Assembly: GCA_964521625.1 (NCBI GenBank)
Contig: CAZFSM010000012.1
Location: forward strand, 1,310-65,309
Direction of reading: 5' to 3'
Length of the DNA stretch: 64,000 bases
Source of the DNA: an uncultured Veillonellaceae bacterium
Lineage (GTDB): Bacteria; Bacillota; Negativicutes; UBA1444
Below, piece by piece: positions 14,886 to 26,979 of the stretch. Numbering within the stretch: position 1 is the first letter of the stretch; the number at the start of each line of letters is the position of its first letter. Position numbers and translations under genes: made by a program. Below the pieces are notes generated by a model. The model did not search any database, was not told the DNA's origin, and saw only the letters and a list, made by a program, of their open reading frames with translations.

Positions 14886-16289
14886 GTGAAAAACTACAAT
14901 CATGTTACTGCCGATATTCTTACCCAATTAAAGACAATTGTCGGCGATAAATTCGCATTCTCAGATATCGAGAAATGCGCCACCTATTCATGCGATGAAA
15001 CGCCGGACAGTAAATATGCCTGTCAGCCGGAAGCCGTTGTGCTGCCCCAAACGACCGATGAAGTATCCCGCATCATCAAACTGGCCAACCGAACCGGGAT
15101 TTCCGTTGTGCCCCGCGGGGCCGGCACAGGTCTCGCCTGCGGCGCCATCCCGATCACCGGCGGGATTGTGCTGTCTCTGGAACGATTCGATCGAATCATC
15201 GAAGTCAACGCTGCTGCAATGTATATGATCGTGCAAGCCGGTGTGCGAACGGATGAGGTGCAAAAAGCCGCCAAAGCGGCAGGACTGTTATATGCCGGCG
15301 ACCCCTGCAGCGGCGACAGTTGTTTCATTGGCGGCAACATCGCCACCAATGCCGGCGGAAACCGGGCAGTGAAGTATGGCACTACCCGACACCAAGTCTA
15401 TGAATTTGAAATAGTGACCCCCTTGGGCGACATTGTTCGGCTTGGCAGCCGCCTGAACAAAAATACCACCGGCTACTGCCTGGAACAATTGATCATCGGC
15501 TCCGAAGGAACCCTTGGCATCATCACCCAGGCTACGTTAAAACTCAAGCCTTTGCCTGCTCACGTCATCGATGTATTAACCGTCTTTGCCGATGTCGAGC
15601 CTGCTATCGCAATCGTCGGCCTTATGCTGAGGGCCGGCCAGACACCGACCTGCGTCGAATTCATGGACAACGCAGCCGTGCAAAGTGTTGAAAGGTTTTT
15701 GCAAGAAAAATTGCCGCATAGTGAAATCGGACACTACGTGATCATCCAGCTGGAAGCAGACAGCGAAGAAGACTTGGAAAATAAAACAGTGACGCTGGAT
15801 GAGCTCTGCAGTAAAAATGGCGCGATTGCCGTGCTGGTGGCCGATTCGCAAAAGATCTGGAAAGCCCGCAAGGCCTTCACGGAAGCAACCCGCCTGGAAA
15901 GTGCGGTTCAATCCTTCGAAGACATTGTGGTTCCGGTAGACCGGATCCCTGAAGCAGTATCGGCCAGCAATCGAATTGCCGGTCAATATGACTTGACGAT
16001 CCGAATGGTCAGTCATGCCGGAGATGGCAATATTCACCTGACTCTGTTCCGCGGTGATCTGCCGGAAGATGAATGGGACCGCCGCCTGAACGGCTTTGAA
16101 AACGAGTTGTACCAAGTCGTTTACCAACTGGGAGGCCGCCTGTCCGGCGAACATGGCATCGGTTACAAACGCAAGGATCTGATGCAACAGTTCACCGATC
16201 CGGTGGAGCTGGACATGATGCGCCGGATCAAGCTGGCGCTCGACCCCAATCTGATTCTCAATCCCGGCAAAATATTTGATGTGGAGTAA
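14886..16289 (+). CDS. FAD-linked oxidase (GlcD / D-lactate dehydrogenase family)
   Basis: 467 aa, GTG start after GGAG. FAD_binding_4 region (VVPRGAGTGLACGAIP) and a C-terminal FAD-oxidase_C domain. Confidence 0.8.
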   Translation: MKNYNHVTADILTQLKTIVGDKFAFSDIEKCATYSCDETPDSKYACQPEAVVLPQTTDEVSRIIKLANRTGISVVPRGAGTGLACGAIPITGGIVLSLERFDRIIEVNAAAMYMIVQAGVRTDEVQKAAKAAGLLYAGDPCSGDSCFIGGNIATNAGGNRAVKYGTTRHQVYEFEIVTPLGDIVRLGSRLNKNTTGYCLEQLIIGSEGTLGIITQATLKLKPLPAHVIDVLTVFADVEPAIAIVGLMLRAGQTPTCVEFMDNAAVQSVERFLQEKLPHSEIGHYVIIQLEADSEEDLENKTVTLDELCSKNGAIAVLVADSQKIWKARKAFTEATRLESAVQSFEDIVVPVDRIPEAVSASNRIAGQYDLTIRMVSHAGDGNIHLTLFRGDLPEDEWDRRLNGFENELYQVVYQLGGRLSGEHGIGYKRKDLMQQFTDPVELDMMRRIKLALDPNLILNPGKIFDVE

Positions 16290-16377: not shown

Positions 16378-17649
16378 TTAGTCTCTATTTAACGCTCTAT
16401 GGGCAATATCCTTGCGGTACTGCATCCCGGCAAACTTAATCTGTTCCACGGCAGGATAGACTTTTGCCACTGCCGCCGCGATATCCTCCGCCACCGCAGT
16501 CACACCGAGCACACGACCGCCATGAGTTACAATTGTATCGCCGGCCAAAGCCGTGCCGGCGTGAAATACCACGGCGCCCTTCGTTTCTGCTGTCGCCATA
16601 CCGCTGATGGCATCACCTTTGCGGTACTCACCCGGATAACCACCGGCAGCCAGCACGACGCAAACGGTAGCGCCCTTTTGCCAGTGCACTGCTGCTTCAG
16701 CCAGTGTGCCGTCGATACAGGCTTCCAGCACCGGCAGCAAATCTCCTTCTAGTAGCGGCAATACCACCTGGGTCTCGGGATCGCCGAACCGGGCGTTGAA
16801 TTCGATCACTTTCGGTCCTGACTCCGTGATCATTAGCCCAGCATAGAGACACCCCTGATAAAGGATTCCGTCGTTACGCAGACCATCAATCATTGGCTGC
16901 AAAATGGTCTGTTGCACTTCGGCAAGCAATTCCGGCGTCATCACCGGCGCTGGTGCGTAAGCGCCCATGCCGCCGGTATTGGGACCGGTATCGCCATCAC
17001 CGACCCGTTTGTGATCCTGCGCCGCCACCATCGGCACGACAGTGAAACCATCGGTAAAGGCCAATAGTGAAGCCTCCTCGCCAATCAGCCGTTCTTCCAG
17101 AACCACTTGACTGCCGGCATCGCCGTGCACCTTTTTCAACATGATTTCGTCAATCGCCTGTAACGCTTCCGCCGCCGTCTCCGCCACTACGACGCCTTTG
17201 CCGGCAGCCAGCCCATCGGCCTTGACCACAATACCGGCACCTTTTGCTTCGATATAGTTGCGGGCATCTGCGGCTGAGTCAAACACAGCGAAGTCAGCCG
17301 TCGGCACTCCATACTTTCTCATCCGGTCCTTGGCGAAACTCTTGGACCCCTCCAACTGCGCCGCTTCCTGCGAAGGGCCAAACACTTTCAGCCCCCTTGC
17401 TGAAAAATAATCTGCAATTCCATCCGTCAGCGGCTTTTCTGGCCCGACAACCGTCAGGTCGATGTTATGCTCCTGAGCAAAACCACACAGGGCTTTGATA
17501 TTATCCGCCGATATGTTCACGCATTCAGCCAAGGCTCCGATCCCCGGGTTGCCTGGCGCACAGTAGATCTTCGTCACACGGGGACTTTGGGCCAGCTTCC
17601 ACGCCAGGGCATGTTCGCGCCCGCCGCCGCCCACCACCAGGATTCGCAT
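16378..17649 (-). CDS. purD: phosphoribosylamine--glycine ligase
   Basis: MRILVVGGGGREHALAWKL, an ATP-grasp enzyme. Confidence 0.95.
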   Translation of the reverse strand: MRILVVGGGGREHALAWKLAQSPRVTKIYCAPGNPGIGALAECVNISADNIKALCGFAQEHNIDLTVVGPEKPLTDGIADYFSARGLKVFGPSQEAAQLEGSKSFAKDRMRKYGVPTADFAVFDSAADARNYIEAKGAGIVVKADGLAAGKGVVVAETAAEALQAIDEIMLKKVHGDAGSQVVLEERLIGEEASLLAFTDGFTVVPMVAAQDHKRVGDGDTGPNTGGMGAYAPAPVMTPELLAEVQQTILQPMIDGLRNDGILYQGCLYAGLMITESGPKVIEFNARFGDPETQVVLPLLEGDLLPVLEACIDGTLAEAAVHWQKGATVCVVLAAGGYPGEYRKGDAISGMATAETKGAVVFHAGTALAGDTIVTHGGRVLGVTAVAEDIAAAVAKVYPAVEQIKFAGMQYRKDIAHRALNRD

Positions 17650-17668
17650 AGTACAACCTCCAGTTAGT

Positions 17669-19210
17669 TCAATGTTTGAAATGGCGCATCCCGGTGAAAA
17701 TCATCGCGATGCCGTGTTCATCCGCCGCGGCAATCGACTCTTCATCGCGCATCGAACCGCCTGGTTGGATGATCGCGGTAATTCCAGCCTTAGCTGCCGC
17801 ATCCAGCGTATCGCGAAACGGAAAAAAGGCATCCGACGACAGCACCGCGCCGCGAGCCGCTTCTCCGGCTTGTTTCAGGGCGATTTCCGCCGCGCCGACC
17901 CGGTTCATCTGCCCAGCCCCCACGCCGATCGTGCGGCCTTCGCGGGCAATCACGATGGCGTTTGATTTTACATGCTTGACAACTTTCCAGGCCAATTCCA
18001 GCTCTTTCAGTTCGGCTTCCGTCGGCATTCTTTGGGAAACGGTCTTCCATTCGCCAGGCTGTGCGTCAGCTGTGTCGGTCGCTTGAACTAGCATTCCGCC
18101 TGACACCGTCTTGATGTCATAGCGTTGTTTGGCGTCAGGCTGCGGCAAATCCGCCGTCAACAGCCGAACATTTTTTTTGGCGCCTAGTATCTCCAGCGCT
18201 GCCGGCTCAAAGACCGGCGCAATCACCGCTTCAAGAAAAATCGCCTTGAGCTGTTCGGCGGTCGCCGCATCCACCGGCCGGTTCAGCGCCACGATACCGC
18301 CAAATGCCGATACCGGATCTGCCTCATAAGCCAGTTTGTAAGCAGTTGCTATATCATCGGCTGTTGCCGTACCACAAGGATTGGTATGCTTGATAATCGT
18401 CGCGGCCGGTTTGCTGAACTCCGCCGCAATTGCATAGGCCGATTCAAGATCGACGATGTTGTTGAAGGAAAGTTCCTTACCAGCCAGTTGTCGGGCATAG
18501 GCCACTCCACTCCTGGCATCATTGTCACGGTAGAACGCCGCCGTCTGATGCGGGTTTTCGCCATAGCGCAGATTCTGCAGTTTTTCCCAGGGCAGAATCA
18601 GAGTCGAGGGATATTCACCCTCGCCAGTCTGCTCGGAGAAATAACGCGAAATCGCCGCATCGTACTCTGCAGTATGGGTAAACGCTTCGCGTACCAAAGT
18701 CAGGCGAGTCGGCGCAGTCACTTCGCCATGCGCTGAGAGCTCAGCCACCACCTCGGAATAACGCTCCGGATTGACGACCACGGTCACATAACGGTAGTTC
18801 TTTGCTGCGCTGCGCACCATCGCCGGACCACCGATGTCGATGTTCTCCACTGCATCTTCCTGGGTCACGCCCTGTTTGGCAATCGTCTGGCGAAACGGGT
18901 ATAAATTTACAACGACCAGATCGATCGGACAAATCCCGTGTTCCTGCATTGCCGCCGCGTGTTCCGGGTTGTCGCGTACCGCCAGAATCCCGCCATGAAT
19001 ATAGGGATTCAGGGTTTTCACACGACCATCCATCATTTCAGGAAATCCAGTGACATCACTGATATAAATGACGGGAATCCCCGCCTCCTGCAACGCCTTC
19101 ATTGTGCCGCCGGTCGAAACGATCTCGATTCCCAGTTCCGTTAGTTTTTTGGCGAAATCCACCACGCCCGTCTTGTCCGATACACTGATCAACGCCCGTT
19201 TCGCCTTCAA
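17669..19210 (-). CDS. purH: bifunctional AICAR formyltransferase / IMP cyclohydrolase
   Basis: 513 aa beginning [23 protein letters not shown] (MGS-like domain). Confidence 0.95.
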
Positions 19211-19857
19211 TGCAGCTCGCCTTCTTCCTTTGGTTTTTGCCGGGGCGGCAATATTTTTACGGCCCGCCCTGCGATGTGAATTCTATCTTCACAATATAGT
19301 CTTACCGCCCGCACATACAAGCGATGTTCCAGATGCAAAATTCGTTCTGCCAGAGTCGTAACCGTGTCGTCTTCTTCCACCGGCACTGCTTCCTGCAGAA
19401 CAATCGGACCCGAGTCCATCCCCTCATCGACAAAATGCACAGTTGCGCCTGACACCTTTACTCCATAGTCAAGCGCCTGCTGCTGTGCATCCAATCCGGG
19501 AAAAGCAGGCAACAATGCGGGATGAATATTCATGATCCGCGTCGGAAACCGGTTGATAAACTGAGGGCTGAGAATCCGCATGAACCCGGCCAGCAAAACC
19601 AGTTCGACGTGATGCAGGTCCAGTTGCTCGATAATAGCAGCTTCAAAAGCTTGTTTGGTGGCGTATTTTTTGCGCTCAACAACGGCAGTCGGGATATTCA
19701 GCCCGGCCACCCGCCGCAATGCATTTGCTTCGGGATTATCGGCAATCACTACGCCGATCTTGGCGACAAGACGGTCCGAATTGATTGCGTCCACGAACGC
19801 CTGCAAATTACTGCCGCGTCCCGACACCAGAATCCCCAGCACTTTTTTACGCACCAA
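19207..19857 (-). CDS. purN: phosphoribosylglycinamide formyltransferase
   Basis: 216 aa ([16 protein letters not shown]...[12 protein letters not shown]). Confidence 0.9.
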
Positions 19858-20914
19858 ACACGCCTCCCTTCAGTTCTACGGTTTGATCACCGGTTACTAC
19901 GCGACCGATCCGGTAACAGATTTCGCCCTGGTCGGCCAGCGCCCGTTGCACCTGCGGCGCCATCTGCTCAGACACTACCAGGATCATGCCGATGCCCATA
20001 TTAAAGGTCCGGTACATCTCAGGCCAAGCTACTTTACCCCACTGTTGCAGCAAGGCGAAAATTTCCGGTCGGGGCCAGTTTTCGACATTGACTACCGCGC
20101 CGCAACCCGCCGGCAACACCCGGGGAATATTATCGTAAAAACCGCCGCCAGTGATGTGAACCATCCCTTTGATCTCATAGTTCTCGATCAGCGGCAGACA
20201 TATTCTGGGGTACAAGCGGGTTGGCGTAAGCAACTCCTCGCCCAGCGTCTTGCCCAGTTCCGGGACTTGCGTATCGACCGTAAATCCCTGATGTTCAAAG
20301 CAAATCTTCCGCACCAGTGAAAATCCATTGGAGTGCACACCAGTGGAGGGCAGTCCGAGCAACACATCACCAGCGACAATTTTTTCACCGGTAATCAGCC
20401 GCGACTTCTCCGCCACCCCGACCGCAAAACCGGCAACATCATATTCGCCATCCGGATAAAAGCCCGACATTTCAGCTGTTTCACCGCCAATCAGCGAACA
20501 GCCGGACTCTTTGCAGGCTTTGGCCACGCCACTGACGACAGTGGCGACTTTTTCCGGCTCCAATTTTCCGACGGCCAGATAGTCAAGGAAAAACAACGGC
20601 TCGGCGCCTTGCACCAGGATGTCGTTGACGCACATGGCCACCGCATCCTGGCCGATCGTATCGTGCCGATCCATCATGAACGCCAGTTTTAATTTGGTTC
20701 CGACGCCGTCAGTTCCCGATACTAGAACCGGCTCGGCGTATTTTTTCATATCCAGGGCAAACAGCCCGCCAAAACCGCCGATGTCCGACAACACTTCCTT
20801 GCGGAAGGTGGCCCGGACATGCGCTTTCATCAAATCGACCGAACGGTTGCCAGCGTCAATATCAACCCCGGCATCGCGATAACTGAGCCCCTTGTCCGCT
20901 TGCTTCCCGTTCAT
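19847..20914 (-). CDS. purM: phosphoribosylformylglycinamidine cyclo-ligase (AIR synthetase)
   Basis: 355 aa AIRS N-terminal and C-terminal domains ([14 protein letters not shown]). Confidence 0.9.
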
Positions 20915-22371
20915 GAGCGCTTCCTCCCTTTCGGCTTCTGCCCCATGGCACAGGCAGTCTCTTCAAAAACAAACTTCGATCCCTGCAATTCCTTGGCGCA
21001 GGCGACTTCCGTCGGATACTCGCCATGGAAGCAGGCAGAGCAAAGTCCGCCCAAATTGACCTGAGTCACCGCTTGCTTGAGTCCTTCCAGCGACAGGTAG
21101 TACAAAGAATCCGCACCGATGTAGCGCCGGATCTGTTCGACCGTCTTGAAACTGGCAATCAGCTCTTTGCGGGCCGTGGTATCGATGCCGTAATAACAGG
21201 GATAAACAATCGGCGGCGAGCTGACGCACATGTGGATTTTTTTCGCACCGGCTTCGCGCAACATTTTGACGATCCGGCCGCTGGTCGTACCGCGAACGAT
21301 CGAGTCGTCAACCATGATGACTGATTTTCCGGCCACTGCCGGCGCAACCGCATTCAGTTTGATCCGTACTCCCGCGTCGCGTTTCTTTTGTTCCGGCTGA
21401 ATAAAGGTCCGCCCGATATAGCGGTTTTTGATTAATCCTTCAGCAAACGGAATCCCCGATTGGGAACTGAATCCATGCGCCGCAGTCGTGCCGGAGTCCG
21501 GCACCGAAATCACGATATCGGCGGTCAGGCCGCTTTCGATCGCCAACTGACGCCCCATGGCCAGACGGGCCAGATGAACGCTCTGTCCGTCAATTATGCT
21601 ATCGGGACGGGCAAAATAGATATACTCAAAAACGCAGAGCGCCGGTGGTTTTTTTTCGTCGACCAGGCGTCGGGACCGCAACTCTTTGCCATCGACTACC
21701 AACATCTCGCCAGGTTCAATATCACGAATCATCTTGGCGCCGACTGCATCAAGCGCACAGGACTCCGAGGCAAAAACCCAACCGCCGTCCGGCATCTGCC
21801 CAAGGCACAACGGACGGAAACCGTTGGGGTCACGCACGCCAATCAGTCGGTCTTCTGTCATGATCACCAGGCAATAGGCGCCCTCGACCTGATTCATGCT
21901 TTCAACGATCCGGTCTTCGACATTTTTCTTTTTCGAGCGGGCAATCAGATTCACGATCACTTCGCTGTCAACCGTGGTCTGGAATACACTGCCGCCCTGC
22001 TCCAGTTTTTTGCGCAACAACGGCGCATTAGTCAGGTTGCCGTTGTGAGCCATAGCGATGCGACCGCCGGCATACGACACAAGTAACGGCTGAATATTTG
22101 CCGCCAGGCTGGAACCGGTGGTGGAATACCGGACATGACCGATTGCAATATGTCCCGGCATCTCCGGCAGGTAATCACGGAACACTTCGTTGACCAGACC
22201 CATCCCGCGCCGGATATCCATCGCATAACCATTGGCCACGCAGATGCCGGCGCTTTCCTGGCCCCGGTGCTGCAATGCATACAAACCCCAGTAGGTGTTC
22301 AGCGCCACATCGACGCCTGGTGCATAGATGCCGAAAATCCCGCATTCTTCATGCAGTTTATCGTCGTTCAT
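20911..22371 (-). CDS. purF: amidophosphoribosyltransferase
   Basis: N-terminal nucleophile Cys ([17 protein letters not shown]) plus a PRTase domain and C-terminal Cys ligands. Confidence 0.95.
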
Positions 22372-22375
22372 CAGG

Positions 22376-23086
22376 CTACATAACCTCGCCGGTCAAACGC
22401 TTTAACACTTCGCGGTAAGCGTCCTCGACATTGCCGAGGTCGCGTCGAAAACGATCCTTGTCCAGTTTTTGTTTAGTTTCGCTATCCCATAACCGACAGG
22501 TATCCGGCGAAATCTCATCGCCAAGAATGACCTGACCTTTGTGCACGCCAAACTCCAGTTTGAAGTCGATCAGTTCGACATTTTTGGTTTTCAGATAAGC
22601 CGACAGAATTTCATTTATTTTCAAAGCATAGACCTTAATCTCGGCAATTTGCTCCGGCGTCGCCAGACCCATCGCCTGGATGTGATATTCGTTGATCAGC
22701 GGGTCATGCAGATCGTCGTTTTTATAGTAAAGTTCGAGCACCGGCATCGGCATCTTTGTTCCCTCTTCCCAGCCAATCCGTTTGGCCAGGCTACCCGCCG
22801 CCACGTTGCGCACCACAACTTCGACCTGGAGAATTTTCAGCGTTTTGACGATCATCTCGCGGTCACTAAGCAGCTTGATGAAATGATGAGGAATGCCATG
22901 CTCGGCGAGCAGATTGAAGAAAAAGGCCGAAACCTTGTTGTTGATGATGCCTTTGTTGATGATGGTGCCACGTTTGGTCCCGTCGAACGCGGTGGCGTCA
23001 TCCTTGAAATATACACGGTATTCATCCGGGTTCGCCGTCGCAAATACCTTTTTCGCTTTGCCTTCGTACAGTTGATTCTCTTCCAT
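22376..23086 (-). CDS. purC: SAICAR synthetase
   Basis: The probable start [15 protein letters not shown] at 23086 follows GGAGGG. The track ORF begins 13 codons upstream. Confidence 0.9.
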
Positions 23087-23223
23087 GTTGTCACCCTCCA
23101 AATTTTGTTTTTCAAAATTATTCACATCATTATTTGCAGCACTGTTTTATTGGATCGCTCCGACGCTGGCGCTTAACCTCCGCTATTCCAATAAAACAAG
23201 CTGCTTGACTAATCTCTCTTTTC

Positions 23224-23715
23224 CTAGCTTTCTAATTTCGCCGCCAGTTTTTGCGCTTTTTTCTCGACCTGTTCGGCCATCGTCTTGCGGTAAGCACGGA
23301 ATTTGCGCTGCAAGCTTGGCGATGAGGTCGCCAGGATCTGCGCCGCGAACAATCCGGCATTTTTAGCGCCATTGATTGCCATGCAGGCCACCGGGATTCC
23401 TGCCGGCATCTGCACGATACTGAGCAACGCATCCATGCCGCCTAGCGATGTGCTGTTCACCGGCACACCGATGATTGGCACTGTCGTATAGGCCGCCACC
23501 ACGCCTGGCAGATGCGCCGCCGCCCCAGCCGCCGCAATGATCACGCCAACGCCGCGGCCGGAAGCACCTTCGGCAAATTCATGCACTTTATCCGGCGTTC
23601 GGTGGGCCGACGCCACGACAACTTCGGTCTCGATCCCAAATTCCTTCAACACCTCGACTGCCGGCGCCATGACATCCCAATCGGAATCACTTCCCATGAT
23701 TATAGCGACTTTCAC
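23224..23715 (-). CDS. purE: N5-carboxyaminoimidazole ribonucleotide mutase
   Basis: 163 aa ([16 protein letters not shown]...), GTG start after GAAGGAGGG. First gene of the pur operon. Confidence 0.9.
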
Positions 23716-23774
23716 AACCGACCCTCCTTCAATACTTTTTTAAAGTCGTTCTACTTAAGACATATATTTTAGGG

Positions 23775-23829
23775 TAAAAAAACAGGCGGGGAGCTTCGCA
23801 TCATTGAATCAGCGAAACCTCCCCGCCCG
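23775..23829 (-). terminator. intrinsic terminator / attenuator inside the purE 5' leader
   Basis: On the minus strand the leader forms GGCGGGGAGGUUUCGC-loop-GCGAAGCUCCCCGCC (about 16 bp) followed by UGUUUUUUU. It lies about 60 nt upstream of the purE Shine-Dalgarno sequence. Confidence 0.6.
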
Positions 23830-24012
23830 GGCTTTTGTCCCCTCGGTGTAGCGCATAAGCGCCTGCGCCACTTGGTCGCAGCCACACCAACATCACCCGT
23901 TCAAATCTGAACGGCACGGGCAACGTCGGCCGTGCGGAACCCTAGGCACACTTTCGCACGTAAGACTTTTGAGACAGCTCAAAAATATACGGCGGATATA
24001 TACTTCACCACC

Positions 24013-24042
24013 ATTGTATCAGTGAGCCGAAAACCATGTCAA
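24013..24042 (-). promoter_or_regulatory. sigma-70/SigA-type promoter of the pur operon
   Basis: On the minus strand TTGACA-N18-TACAAT, about 290 nt upstream of the purE start. Confidence 0.55.
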
Positions 24043-24207
24043 CCCGAAATATGAACTTTAATTAAATTTTAACAGAAATCGTTCGGATTCCTCTTCGCAC
24101 AGTCTGTATTATTTCACCCTTAGGCCAGAGATAAACAGTCTGTAGCTCGAAATAAATTCGACTAAACTTCAGTTGTAATTGAAATTACACCTGAAGTAAG
24201 TCTGCAT

Positions 24208-25749
24208 TTATTCCCACTCTATCGTCGAAGGAGGTTTGGATGTCACATCATATACGATCCGATTGACTCCTTTGACCTCATTGACGATTCGGCGTGACAT
24301 TTTATCCAGCACTTCGTAAGGCATACGCGACCAGTCGGCCGTCATGCCATCTTCGCTTTCAACCGCGCGGATACCGATCGTGTAGGCATAGGTTCGTTCA
24401 TCGCCCATGACCCCGACACTCTTGATCGCCGGCAGTACGGCAAACGATTGCCAGATCTTGCGGTGCAGGCCAGCATTGCGAATCTCTTCCCGCACGATTG
24501 CATCAGCTTCCCGCAAGATGTTCAACCGATCTTCGGTGATTTCGCCAATGATCCGGATCGCCAGACCCGGACCGGGAAATGGCTGCCGTTGGACGATTTC
24601 TTCCGACAGACCCAGCTCGGCGCCCAATACGCGGACTTCGTCCTTGAACAACTCCCTGAGCGGTTCGACCAGGGCAAATTTCATGTCCTTCGGCAAGCCG
24701 CCGACGTTGTGGTGACTCTTGATCACCGCTGCCGTCGAGGTGCCGCTTTCGATCACATCCGGATATAATGTTCCCTGAACCAGGAAATCGGAAGCGCCGA
24801 TTTTTTCCGCTTCGCTTTCGAACACCCGGATGAATTCTTCGCCGATGATCTTGCGTTTGCTTTCCGGTTCAGTCACGCCGGCAACCCGGTTCATAAACCG
24901 TTCTGTGGCATCGACGTGAACCAGGTTGATATGAAACTCATCACGAAAAGTATGCACCACTTGTTTGGCTTCATCCTTGCGCATAAATCCGTGATCGACA
25001 AATACGCAGGTCAATTGATCACCGACCGCCCGGTGTACCAACACTGCAGCCACCGAAGAATCGACGCCGCCGGACAGGCCGCACAGAACCTTCTTGCCAC
25101 CGACCTGTGCGCGAATTTTCGCCACGGCCATATCGATAAAGGAACCCATATTCCAGTCGCCGCGACAGCAACAGATGTTGAACAGGAAGTTTTTCAAAAG
25201 CGGTGTTCCTTCACGGGTATGTACTACTTCCGGATGAAACTGAACGCCATATAGCTTGAGCGCAGCGTTGGACATCGCCGCCGTCGGCGTGTTGGAGGTG
25301 TTGGCCGATACGACAAATCCGGCCGGTGGACGGACAATCGAATCGCCATGACTCATCCAGACTGGCGTGGGCGCAGCAATCCCTTTGAACAAAGCTGCCT
25401 CCACATCGTGGTTCAAGTCCGCATGCCCGTATTCGCGCGCTTCAGACCGGGCAACTTCGCCGCCCAGTTGTAGTGCCATCAACTGCATTCCGTAACAGAT
25501 CCCCAAAACAGGAACACCCAGTGAATAGATCCCCGGATCACTGTGCGGCGCTTTTTCACCGTAGACGCTGTTCGGTCCGCCGGAGAAAATGATCCCTTTG
25601 GGGTTTTTCGCTTTAATCTCCGCCAGCGATGCGTGATAAGGTATGATTTCGCTGTACACGCCGCATTCCCGGACCCTGCGGGCGATCAGCTGGCTGTACT
25701 GCGCACCGAAATCGATGACCAGAACCAGTTCGTCATGTTTGACTGTCAT
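24208..25749 (-). CDS. guaA: GMP synthase (glutamine-hydrolysing)
   Basis: 513 aa with an N-terminal GATase domain (LGICYGMQL), an ATP-PPase SGGVDSS motif and a C-terminal dimerisation domain. Confidence 0.95.
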
Positions 25750-25830: not shown

Positions 25831-26979
25831 CTACTTCACTAGCGGGATAAATTCAGCGTAACCCTCTTCCGCCATTTTTGCCAATGGTACGAATCGCAGC
25901 GACGCACTATTCATACAGTAGCGCAAACCGCCCTTGTCCGCCGGTCCGTCATTGAATAAATGTCCGAGATGGCTGTCACCTGCCCGGCTTCTCACTTCCA
26001 CCCGTTCCATAAACAGCTTTTTATCTTTGCGAACGGTTACCGCCTCTGTCGCTATCGGTCGGGTGTAGCTGGGCCAGCCGGTGCCGGAATCAAATTTGTC
26101 CTTGGAACTGAACAACGGTTCTCCCGTGACCACATCAACATAGATTCCCGCCTCGTGATTGTTCCAATATTCATTGTTAAAGGGGGATTCAGTCCCATCT
26201 TTCTGCGTCACCTGATACTGGAGGTCGGTCAATTTCTTTTTGATCTCTTCAGTCGAAGGTTTTGGGTAGGTCTTGGCAACAGCCGTTTCCGACTGCTTGT
26301 CTGTCTTCGCTTTCACATTTTCCTTATTCATCGGATCCTTATCCAAGCTTTTCAAATCGATATGGCAATAGCCGTTTGGATTCTTCACCAGGTATTTCTG
26401 ATGGTAGGCCTCTGCGACATAGTAATTGCGCAGTGGAACGACTTCAGTGACAATCTTGGCCGAGTATTTTTTTTGTTCGCCGGCTACTACCTGCTCTATC
26501 GTCGCTTTATCGGCAGGATCCCGGTAATAGATGCCGCTGCGGTACTGTACTCCCCGGTCATTACCCTGCCGGTTCAGACTTGTCGGATCGACCACTTTAA
26601 AGAAATAGGCCAGCAGTGTGGCAAGTTCGATGCGTTGTGGATCATATTGCACATACACTGCCTCAGCGTGCCCGGTGTTACTGTAACAAACCTGCTCATA
26701 GGTAGGATTTTCGGTGTTGCCGTTGGCATATCCCACATCGGCGTAAACAACGCCGTCCAGCTTGTCCAGATAAGCCTCCAACCCCCAAAAACAACCTCCG
26801 GCAAGCCATATCTCCCTGTGGCCTGGTTTAAGTTCCGGTTGCACCGGCTTATCGAAAGTTTTCCCTTTGTTTTCAACATTGTTCGTATTCATGATTAACC
26901 CCTTTCCGCAGCCACTGACTGCTGCCATTACTGTTATGATAATCAGTCCCATCAAAACAACAACCAGAGTTTTTTTCAC
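25831..26979 (-). CDS. msrAB: bifunctional peptide methionine sulfoxide reductase MsrA/MsrB, lipoprotein
   Basis: Signal peptide with lipobox VSGC, MsrA motif GGCFWG, and a C-terminal MsrB domain (CMNSASLRF). Confidence 0.9.

Follow-up and report, generated by a model that had tools for sequence, protein, structure and literature searches.

We found that the leader of the purine operon purECFMNHD in the window (the whole 64-kb stretch of DNA analysed here) is very probably a singlet PRPP riboswitch (ykkC subtype 2b), which would act as a transcriptional ON switch for these genes. It is not a new riboswitch class and, apart from a relic of a guanine aptamer lying upstream, it is an ordinary member of its family. 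The fold, the diagnostic residues, the overlap between aptamer and terminator, the gene context and the family membership in both sequence and structure were observed directly in the leader. Homology and the diagnostic residues point to PRPP as the ligand, and PRPP binding and the ON logic are presumed by analogy with the experiments on H. modesticaldum purB, B. megaterium codA and T. mathranii. The original prediction of an attenuation riboswitch that precedes the pur genes and is distinct from the canonical purine riboswitch was borne out, and two of the options that it listed (PRPP-type and guanidine-class) come together in a PRPP variant of the guanidine-I/ykkC fold.

Operon, promoter and leader

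All genes of the operon scored above the curated NCBIfam equivalog cut-offs. They and the elements driving them are as follows:

16378..23715, minus strand: purine operon purECFMNHD, every ORF above its cut-off
23715-23224, minus strand: purE (NCBIfam equivalog)
23125-22376, minus strand: purC (NCBIfam equivalog)
22371-20911, minus strand: purF (NCBIfam equivalog)
20914-19847, minus strand: purM (NCBIfam equivalog)
19857-19207, minus strand: purN (NCBIfam equivalog)
19210-17669, minus strand: purH (NCBIfam equivalog)
17649-16378, minus strand: purD (NCBIfam equivalog)
24013..24042, minus strand: promoter of the sigma-70 type, TTGACA at 24042-24037 and TACAAT at 24018-24013, spacer of 18 nt
23730-23722, minus strand: Shine-Dalgarno sequence GAAGGAGGG, from the sequence
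23715-23713, minus strand: purE start codon GTG, from the sequence and the ORF list

The seven genes (purE-purC-purF-purM-purN-purH-purD) are probably co-transcribed, judging from their common direction and their short or overlapping junctions. The promoter matched the consensus at 11 of 12 positions and carried an extended -10 TG in its spacer (24021-24020, minus strand). Its position would place the transcription start near 24006 and make the leader approximately 291 nt long up to the purE GTG at 23715. The leader folded with an energy of -115.3 kcal/mol (z = -4.75), a value that none of 200 shuffled sequences equalled. Both the near-consensus promoter some 290 nt before purE and the structured nature of the leader had been predicted, and both were confirmed. 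An 11-codon ORF was considered as a leader peptide and was ruled out, as its ATG overlaps the -10 box and lies upstream of the inferred transcription start.

The gene context was also examined in related leaders. The first downstream ORF was purine-related in 48 of 49 cases, comprising 23 biosynthesis enzymes and 25 transporters of the Xan_ur_permease family. The relatives of the window are Negativicutes, and the association of the element with downstream purine genes in Firmicutes hosts was observed here as well. A PurE-based genome scan returned, among the matches listed, mostly distant phyla; the useful loci were L001-L003.

Covariance models and Rfam searches

To identify the family, we used a covariance model (R1) whose only input was 37 published PRPP aptamers (PMC5912903 Supplementary file 2). 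Covariation was evident in the R1 structure: 92.4% of the cells were paired, double changes occurred in 20 of 29 pairs, and none of 500 shuffles was as good. On the 64-kb window, R1 produced a single match, at 23956..23807 on the minus strand, which covered the model in full length (positions 1-117) with 85.2 bits (E ~3e-25, a rough value since the calibration was shortened). The 55 other members scored 84-110 bits, a range that includes the window. The full-length match, together with the presence of every diagnostic residue in its PRPP state (see below), argues against the option of a novel purine-pathway leader.

Rfam 15 at gathering thresholds gave no match in the whole window. The only Rfam family that detected the element was Guanidine-I (RF00442), whose end-to-end match to the leader (42.8 bits, E 2.4e-6) did not reach the gathering score of 63; a subtype-2 variant of the ykkC fold would be expected to score in this way. 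The PRPP aptamer of S. ovata DSM 2662 (L003), the sequence of which equals the published S. ovata row over the compared parts, likewise lacked a gathering-level Rfam 15 match. Thus, the reclassification by a clean cmscan hit that the original prediction had envisaged was out of reach with Rfam alone. ZTP (RF01750) was matched neither at gathering level in the window nor at E <= 10 with permissive filters in a 601-nt region, and Purine (RF00167; gathering score 37) had no match at E <= 10 in 23650-24250. The latter agrees with the predicted absence of purine riboswitch hallmarks, whereas the suggested ZTP/pfl relationship is not supported. The fragments that had appeared ZTP-like (ACCGAGGGGA, CCGGGCG, and UGGCG with a GCGC hairpin) belong to the ykkC fold, in which they are elements of J/P3, the tail and P1/P2. 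The permissive Rfam search also listed miRNA precursors, snoR64, twister-sister and a lncRNA (E 0.065-8.6), which we regard as chance matches that track the terminator hairpin and GC-rich stems.

Since PRPP riboswitches escape the gathering thresholds of Rfam 15, leaders of pur operons may stay unannotated or be mistaken for novel elements. A practical rule for recognizing them would be a sub-threshold Guanidine-I match combined with U or C at position 49, G at position 96 and the GAAAG...GGUUUC tails.

Fold of the aptamer and ligand-contact residues

Base-by-base inspection of the helices and mapping of the ligand contacts via the T. mathranii row gave the following features:

23812..23957, minus strand: PRPP aptamer (ykkC subtype 2b), from the PRPP covariance model R1, residue mapping and base-by-base helix check
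23957-23953 with 23816-23812, minus strand: P0, GCGAAA with UUUCGC (pairs G-C, C-G, G-C, A-U, A-U)
23950-23945 with 23869-23864, minus strand: P1, checked base by base
C23937-G23877 and C23936-G23879, minus strand: P1a, with C23878 bulged
23935-23880, minus strand: P1b, including an extension of ~44 nt
23863-23850, minus strand: P2
23846-23844 with 23825-23823, and 23841-23839 with 23831-23829, minus strand: P3
A5 23952, G6 23951, G48 23871, U49 23870, minus strand: ligand contacts
C77 23846, C78 23845, G96 23827, minus strand: ligand contacts
G101 23822, A103 23820, G104 23819, G105 23818, minus strand: ligand contacts in the 3' tail

The leader displays the ykkC architecture (P1-P1a-P1b, P2 and P3) with the core CUAGGGUUCC / GACCRAG / ACACC / GGGA-AAAAGCCC, and each of the 11 ligand-contact positions known from the T. 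mathranii crystal structure carries the residue that marks the PRPP state. When the window was compared with L001, every substitution within the switch fell in loops or just beyond the stem. The PRPP class was set apart from the ppGpp (2a) and NDP (2c) classes by G96, the tails and the gene context, rather than by competing models.

First, position 49 separates subtypes 1 and 2, being A in guanidine-I and a pyrimidine in subtype 2 (PMC6031431). It is U in the window (23870), and among the relatives it was U in 42, C in 15 and A in none of 57. We therefore consider the chance that the leader is a guanidine-I riboswitch (ykkC subtype 1) to be practically negligible. Although Guanidine-I is the sole matching Rfam family and its match spans the full length of the leader, the score fell short of the gathering score and was half that of the PRPP-derived model; moreover, the leader has the conserved tails and P0 that guanidine aptamers lack, and only pur genes lie downstream, with no guanidine carboxylase or efflux genes there.

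Second, published PRPP aptamers have a 5' tail GAAAG and a 3' tail RGG..AGGUUUC, which form P0 and contact the pyrophosphate through A5, G6, R101, A103, G104 and G105 (PMC6031431). Both tails are found in the window (CGAAAG at 23956-23951 and GGGGAGGUUUCGC at 23824-23812), together with P0.

Third, position 96 is G in the window (23827) and in 55 of 55 relatives. This position is G in >97% of PRPP aptamers, whereas ppGpp aptamers have A, C or U there or lack the position; a G there confers a 46-fold preference for PRPP, and the G96A change shifts the specificity by ~40,000-fold (PMC6031431). A ppGpp riboswitch (ykkC subtype 2a), which would couple purine synthesis to the stringent response, appears very unlikely on these grounds. 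Weak binding of ppGpp by the wild-type T. mathranii PRPP aptamer (Kd 91 uM; PMC6031431) speaks for some affinity of this fold, but the leader carries G96 and is followed by pur genes, not by genes for branched-chain amino acids, glutamate synthase or natA.

Finally, the scaffold might serve another or a new ligand (2c NDP, 2d orphan or an unrecognised variant), or the fold might be mimicked by a protein-dependent attenuator. The specificity of the ykkC scaffold shifts with very few mutations (PMC7266159), and neither the long P1b extension nor the 5' relic is typical. On the other hand, 11 of 11 PRPP-contact residues are retained, P1b differs greatly in length across the published alignment and can carry insertions of up to ~190 nt, and a bulged C and the GAGGUUUCG tail also occur in published rows (PMC5912903). 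In addition, the genes that accompany 2c encode NUDIX and HAD hydrolases, and those that accompany 2d encode EamA and TauE transporters, not pur functions (PMC7266159), whereas purE lies downstream here; these two subtypes were judged by gene association. Such a ligand or attenuator is thus highly improbable, and a PRPP riboswitch is the reading that we retain.

Expression platform and proposed mechanism

The leader contains an intrinsic terminator:

23776..23827, minus strand: intrinsic terminator, 5' arm 23827-23812, loop 23811-23800, 3' arm 23799-23785, U tract 23784-23776

It consists of a 5' arm GGCGGGGAGGUUUCGC, a 12-nt loop, a 3' arm GCGAAGCUCCCCGCC and a U tract UGUUUUUUU, and its stem of 15 bp with one bulge has an energy of -27.3 kcal/mol. 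A strong terminator at the end of the leader had been predicted correctly, and its distance of about 60 nt from the Shine-Dalgarno sequence was roughly right (45 nt past the U tract and 54 nt past the stem). A terminator scan listed no site because it allowed only loops of 3-8 nt, which the 12-nt loop exceeds; this is not evidence of absence, and the hairpin was checked directly. Across the five leaders that carry the relic described below, the terminator arms were conserved and the terminator loop was variable.

The 5' arm of the terminator begins with G96 itself and spans the 3' strand of outer P3, the ligand-contacting tail and the 3' strand of P0, so that nine paired nucleotides are common to the terminator and to P3 plus P0. 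This is the layout of an ON-switch platform; in published PRPP switches, P3 and P0 constitute the antiterminator (PMC5912903; PMC6031431). Constrained folding gave -88.6 kcal/mol for the terminator state and -65.8 kcal/mol for the aptamer state, which makes the former more stable by ~23 kcal/mol in nearest-neighbour energies that leave out tertiary contacts, Mg2+, ligand and co-transcriptional kinetics. Unconstrained folds failed to reproduce the native interior of the aptamer.

We propose that, after transcription starts at ~24006, the aptamer (23957-23812) would adopt the ykkC fold with its 5' and 3' tails paired as P0. PRPP with Mg2+ would occupy a pocket formed by A5, G6, G48, U49, C77, C78, G96, G101 and A103-G105, locking P3 and P0; the locked helices would sequester 23827-23812, the 5' arm of the terminator, and RNA polymerase would read through into purE. 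Without PRPP, the far more stable terminator hairpin (23827-23785 plus U7) would form and transcription would end. PRPP is the substrate of PurF. The operon would thus be switched on when its substrate accumulates.

A probable guanine-aptamer relic at the 5' end of the leader

Alignment with intact guanine aptamers revealed a relic in the first ~40 nt of the leader, which the original prediction had missed:

23955..23994, minus strand: guanine-aptamer relic ('ghost'), from alignment with intact guanine aptamers
23994-23988 with 23962-23955, minus strand: P1-like helix of the relic, with U23958 bulged
23986-23978 with 23973-23965, minus strand: P2-like hairpin of the relic, with a CUGU loop

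The relic shows homology with the guanine aptamer found in the tandem guanine-PRPP switch of Sporomusa. It could be aligned with the intact versions in S. silvacetica, S. ovata and L103 except for deletions of 3 nt (L2) and 27 nt (P3, L3 and most of J2/3). With these parts deleted, the leader does not qualify as a Purine riboswitch and no guanine input is expected. Rfam Purine scored L002 and L003 at 86 bits, whereas the same model remained unmatched in the window at E <= 10; guanine aptamers in the loci were sorted by a simple regex, with Rfam confirmation for L002 and L003 only. With lower confidence than for the PRPP aptamer, we suggest that the relic (23994-23955) goes back to an ancestral tandem guanine-PRPP switch whose guanine aptamer lost P3.

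Conservation of the relic was high. In the five leaders carrying it, it was 98.9% identical with one of 37 columns varying, compared with 29-67% in adjacent non-core segments; the -35 box was invariant and the -10 box nearly so. Between the window and L113, 36 of 37 relic positions were identical, and the sole change lay in the hairpin loop, whereas the ~18 nt immediately upstream matched at 8 of 19 positions and the post-terminator spacer at 8 of 45. The relic hairpin has an energy of -15.9 kcal/mol, and its three basal pairs use G23957, C23956 and G23955, which also belong to the 5' strand of P0. In ensemble calculations, the relic paired with a probability of 0.55-0.82 at the decision point, and the pair probability of P0 fell from 0.97-0.99 without the relic to 0.02 with it.

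Based on these observations, we propose that competition between its basal pairs and P0 may have preserved the relic. It would then act as a ligand-independent anti-antiterminator, holding basal read-through low and raising the PRPP threshold. Tentatively, and with somewhat less than an even chance of being right, we consider it a functional ghost guanine aptamer: a tandem IMPLY gate would have lost guanine sensing, while the P1/P2 remnant was kept and strengthened as a hard-wired anti-antiterminator that determines the PRPP threshold and how tightly the switch is held OFF. It could equally well be true or false that the relic is nothing but neutral debris, or owes its conservation to something other than the switch, and that the element works as a plain singlet. 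Guanine sensing is not to be expected with P3, L3 and most of J2/3 gone and Rfam Purine unmatched, published singlets function without a guanine aptamer, and the relic is nearly invariant among the five leaders, so that they offer conservation only and no covariation. This reading is harder to reconcile with the strong conservation relative to the upstream and spacer segments and with basal pairs that overlap P0 and suppress it in the calculations. A DNA-level operator, a hairpin for RNA stability or a protein site could also account for the conservation, and the clade may be so young that the neutral baseline is not firm, though the spacer and loops have clearly diverged. The plain-singlet alternative touches this secondary claim only and is compatible with the PRPP singlet explanation.

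If the functional ghost reading were true, this would be the first ghost aptamer that comes from another riboswitch class than its functional partner. It would also provide a natural experiment on how the tandem gate passes on the OFF signal, pointing to the responsible part of the guanine aptamer, a mechanism left open by the discoverers of the gate, and the relic would represent a natural dissection of the cross-talk from the P1 helix of the upstream aptamer to P0 of the PRPP aptamer.

Comparison with known systems

The leader has much in common with the singlet PRPP switches of Heliobacterium modesticaldum purB, Facklamia ignava purC and Thermoanaerobacter mathranii (Sherlock et al. 2018, PMC5912903; Knappenberger et al. 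2018, PMC6031431, the latter with the crystallised aptamer), including the fold (P0, P1, P1a, P1b, P2 and P3), the core, the tails, the 11 contacts with G96 and pyrimidine 49, the overlap of the terminator with P3/P0, de novo purine genes and a Firmicute host. It differs from them in the ~44-nt P1b extension and in the conserved guanine-aptamer relic before the aptamer; the bulged C of P1a is found in a few published PRPP rows too. The exact sequence of the window is absent from the published 257-member PRPP alignment. With guanidine-I (RF00442) it shares the scaffold and most tertiary-contact nucleotides, but that class has A49, no conserved tails or P0, another ligand and other genes, and the window scores below its gathering score.

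Tandem guanine-PRPP IMPLY gates have been described in Bacillus megaterium codA and Sporomusa ovata NZ_ASXP01000001.1/474839-475031 (PMC5912903; review PMC9481103), and the S. ovata tandem is itself a row in the published PRPP alignment. The window leader is orthologous to the tandem leaders: promoter, 5' strand of guanine P1, J1/2, P2, PRPP aptamer and terminator keep the same register as in S. silvacetica, S. ovata and L103. In the window leader, a stretch of 27 nt (P3, L3 and most of J2/3) and 3 nt of L2 are missing, and its residual P1 is stronger, more GC-rich and predicted to be ligand-independent. The relic helix abuts or overlaps the 5' tail of the PRPP aptamer, the region that is destabilised by guanine binding in the tandem. 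A clade of Negativicutes probably keeps its de novo purine operon under PRPP alone, in contrast with the guanine/PRPP logic gate of Sporomusa relatives.

The closest parallel to the relic is found in singlet glycine riboswitches, in which a degenerate remnant of a second aptamer likewise lies beside the functional aptamer and is conserved for supporting it. This glycine ghost aptamer was reportedly first described by Ruff and co-workers in 2016. The term ghost aptamer is named in PMC9481103. The glycine ghost belongs to the same class as its partner and makes tertiary contacts that aid ligand binding, whereas the relic in the window belongs to the guanine class and is predicted to be an antagonist of P0.

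Assignment of the purE leader to the PRPP riboswitch class

A search of the whole window with Rfam 15 at gathering thresholds gave no match. At permissive thresholds, the sole credible match was Guanidine-I (RF00442, ykkC fold), which aligned end to end (model positions 1-107, E 2.4e-6) with a score of 42.8 bits (gathering 63). Neither the ZTP nor the Purine model was listed at E <= 10 in the permissive search of the leader region; thus, the ZTP relationship raised in the original prediction was not supported, and its view that this was not a canonical purine riboswitch agreed with our results. Finding a ykkC match below threshold ahead of purine genes suggests one of the 'subtype 2' variants of this fold, of which subtype 2b is the PRPP riboswitch, located upstream of de novo purine genes in Firmicutes (Sherlock et al., 2018, PMC5912903) and occurring as singlets or immediately 3' of a guanine aptamer (PMC5912903).

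We realigned 37 rows out of the published 257-member Stockholm alignment, which does not include the window's own sequence (PMC5912903), and used the T. mathranii row to transfer onto them the secondary structure, as published and as seen in the crystal, with P0 included. Covariation support for this structure was strong: paired cells made up 92.4%, double changes occurred in 20 of 29 pairs, none of 500 shuffles was as high as observed, and slid controls were at most 47% paired. A covariance model built from these rows, with no window sequence inside, found a single match in the 64-kb window (23956..23807, minus strand), which was full length and scored 85.2 bits (E about 3e-25). This is double what Guanidine-I gave and falls among the scores of 55 other members (84-110 bits). 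The leader is assigned to an established class, as a new and unannotated PRPP riboswitch. The original prediction was right about the attenuation-riboswitch architecture and had the correct class (PRPP-type) among its options; its suggestion of a novel purine-pathway leader had to be abandoned, since the element belongs to a known class.

The T. mathranii row reproduced the crystal numbering, which allowed the diagnostic residues to be read in the window.

Diagnostic residues in the window (crystal numbering and roles from PMC6031431)
23952 and 23951, minus strand: A5 and G6 (window A, G), beta-phosphate contacts
23871, minus strand: G48 (window G), 5-phosphate contact
23870, minus strand: position 49 (window U), pyrimidine in PRPP and ppGpp, A in guanidine-I
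23846 and 23845, minus strand: C77 and C78 (window C, C), pocket contacts
23827, minus strand: G96 (window G), >97% G in PRPP, non-G in ppGpp
23822, minus strand: position 101 (window G), purine
23820, 23819 and 23818, minus strand: A103, G104 and G105 (window A, G, G), pyrophosphate pocket

Of the 57 matches that were aligned, 55 were full length. The residues A5, G6 and G48 were invariant in all 57, and position 49 was U in 42, C in 15 and A in none. C77, C78, G96, A103 and G105 were invariant in all 55 full-length matches, in which position 101 was always a purine and position 104 was G (50) or A (5). A G96A change swaps specificity ~40,000-fold (PMC6031431). From sequence, we infer that the window RNA binds PRPP. 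The bulged C of P1a (CUG-C-GACC) was common to the window and published PRPP rows such as JGI996J12353.

Leader architecture and switching

Elements of the leader and first gene
24042..24013, minus strand: promoter, TTGACA, 18-nt spacer with extended -10 TG, TACAAT; 11 of 12 consensus positions
23880-23935, minus strand: P1b, with a ~44-nt extension forming a long helix
23827-23785, minus strand: terminator hairpin, GGCGGGGAGGUUUCGC / GCGAAGCUCCCCGCC, 15 bp, -27.3 kcal/mol
23784-23776, minus strand: terminator U tract, UGUUUUUUU, directly after the hairpin
23715..23224, minus strand: purE, 163-aa ORF with GTG start; TIGR01162, 207.9 bits

The promoter lay about 298 nt upstream of the purE start and the leader fold reached -115.3 kcal/mol (z = -4.75 against shuffled controls), confirming the promoter, structured 5' UTR and strong intrinsic terminator proposed ahead of purE. 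The terminator scan was limited to loops of 3-8 nt and for this reason alone did not pick up the hairpin, which has a 12-nt loop.

P0 pairs the tails of the aptamer, GCGAAA (from 23957) with UUUCGC (to 23812). The terminator 5' arm (23827-23812), whose first base is G96, takes in the 3' strands of outer P3 and of P0 as well as the tail that contacts the ligand, and 9 paired nucleotides are common to both folds. Nearest-neighbour energies favored the terminator state (-88.6 kcal/mol) over the aptamer state (-65.8 kcal/mol) by about 23 kcal/mol; thus, the default should be OFF, and read-through should need a ligand-locked P3/P0. PRPP would lock P3/P0 and sequester the terminator 5' arm, permitting read-through into purE. 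This overlap follows the same logic as published PRPP riboswitches, in which P3 is the antiterminator and P0 part of the expression platform. In other members, PRPP raises full-length transcripts in vitro and switches a reporter on in delta-purF cells (PMC5912903).

Gene context

Genes around the leader
23715..16378, minus strand: purE, purC, purF, purM, purN, purH and purD, co-directional and tightly packed
14886-16289, plus strand: GlcD-like FAD oxidase, opposite strand, just past purD
25749..24208, minus strand: guaA, upstream of the pur promoter
25831-26979, minus strand: 382-aa ORF upstream of guaA, flanking and unrelated to the leader

All seven pur ORFs exceeded the curated cut-offs of their respective NCBIfam equivalog models, and the oxidase gene marks the operon end. 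A nested hairpin right after the guaA stop (24150-24205, minus strand; -23.2 kcal/mol, z = -3.5), with a U-rich stretch carrying an A interruption (UUUAUUU) on its 3' side, is probably the guaA terminator, parting guaA from the pur promoter. Since guaA closes in its own stable hairpin, the pur promoter starts an independent unit. Judged by eye, the 382-aa ORF looks like a lipoprotein-type MsrA/MsrB fusion.

Origin and conservation of a guanine aptamer relic

A PurE-based genome scan gave, among the matches listed, a MAG labelled 'uncultured Veillonellaceae' (L001; 98% identical), Sporomusa silvacetica (L002) and S. ovata (L003) (both 74-75%), and our model found the PRPP aptamer in all three. 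These relatives place the source of the window among the Negativicutes. Substitutions between the window and L001 inside the switch were all in loops or just beyond the terminator stem. In the terminator-to-SD spacer (window 23731-23775, L001 1165-1228), 29 nt were missing in L001, the closest of the three at 98% PurE identity, so this spacer is dispensable and fast-evolving. Searching metagenomes for the 5' core common to these leaders yielded 56 loci, 55 of which had full-length aptamers; the first downstream ORFs (n=49) included 25 xanthine/uracil-family permeases, 19 PurE, 2 PurB, 1 PurC and 1 PurS.

The S. ovata element in the published alignment is a tandem guanine-PRPP switch, and the regions showing intact tandems and the genes they precede were L002 1075-1282 and 1524-2894, L003 1176-1383, L103 8821-9085 and, among the related loci, L127. 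In both Sporomusa species, a Purine aptamer (86 bits, Rfam) lay immediately 5' of the PRPP aptamer. Promoter boxes of the window and Sporomusa leaders were in register, with clear homology across P2, J1/2 and the 5' strand of the guanine P1. Missing from the window were 27 nt, comprising P3 and L3 in full, J2/3 for the most part and some of J3/1, and its L2 was 3 nt shorter. The L103 tandem was alignable with the window over the entire leader. Thus, the first ~40 transcribed nt of the window represent a guanine aptamer relic.

23955-23994, minus strand: guanine aptamer relic; P1 and P2 kept, P3 deleted, L2 shortened

The relic also occurred in four other leaders (L001, L105, L111, L113), all immediately before purE. 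The intact tandem precedes a Xan_ur_permease-family gene and then purE in both Sporomusa species, and purE immediately in L103; these arrangements therefore form three states of one leader family: tandem plus permease, tandem plus purE, and relic plus purE.

Across the five leaders, relic identity was 98.9%, with one of 37 columns variable (in the hairpin loop), and the PRPP core was as conserved (96-100%). Identity elsewhere was 67% in the 18 nt just upstream, 50% in the terminator loop and 29% in the post-terminator spacer; between the window and L113, the corresponding matches were 36/37 (relic), 8/19 (upstream segment) and 8/45 (spacer). The relic is not drifting, and it is the sole part beyond the textbook picture of a PRPP switch.

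Published P1b insertions reach ~190 nt (PMC5912903 alignment), and the window's 44-nt extension is thus within family variation. All five relic-type leaders carried it, and the Sporomusa tandems did not. In the five closest leaders the helix was kept and the sequence varied (3 pairs changed on both sides, many G-U/G-C switches), that is, fast evolution with partly compensatory changes. Gain of this extension coincided with loss of the guanine aptamer P3.

Possible role of the relic

The relic hairpin (-15.9 kcal/mol) appeared to compete with P0, as its basal pairs (C23994-G23955, G23993-C23956, C23992-G23957) occupy the P0 5' strand. For the transcript ending at 23812, the decision point, the MFE fold (-76.6 kcal/mol) had the full relic hairpin and no P0; enforcing aptamer plus P0 gave -72.1 kcal/mol. 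Including the relic lowered P0 pair probability from 0.97-0.99 to about 0.02, and relic helix probability was 0.55-0.82. Guanine bound to the tandem gate reportedly destabilises the PRPP aptamer 5' tail, the same tail overlapped by the relic. Conservation, P0 competition and this parallel suggest, with moderate confidence, that the relic may be a retained, ligand-independent anti-antiterminator. Its near-invariance without covariation is also compatible with a hairpin that stabilises the RNA, with a site bound by a protein or serving as operator, or with a relic clade too young for drift to show.

Many other PRPP singlets had a hairpin closing 0-2 nt 5' of aptamer position 1.

Singlets with a 5'-adjacent hairpin (related loci)
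L117, L118, L094, L112, L091, L124, L083: CGUUAAAA..UUUUAACGAG type
L085, L093, L135, L131, L119: CCGUAGAG..GGCCGG..CCGGC..ACGGA type
L128, L115, L129: further singlets

These hairpins often ended in ACGAG or ACGGA, resembling the P1 3' strand of the tandem guanine aptamer (..CUACGGG or ..CUACGAG), and the z-scores of their folds reached moderate values only. Singlet PRPP switches may in general include a helix directly 5' of the aptamer, a feature so far undescribed, and more ghost aptamers may be present among the hairpins listed here. A tandem-riboswitch review (PMC9481103) never uses the terms relic, remnant, vestigial and degenerate, and the passages of it that were covered describe no remnant beside a PRPP aptamer. 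For the window's anti-antiterminator candidate, the closest analogue is found in singlet glycine riboswitches, namely their 'ghost aptamer' (PMC9481103).
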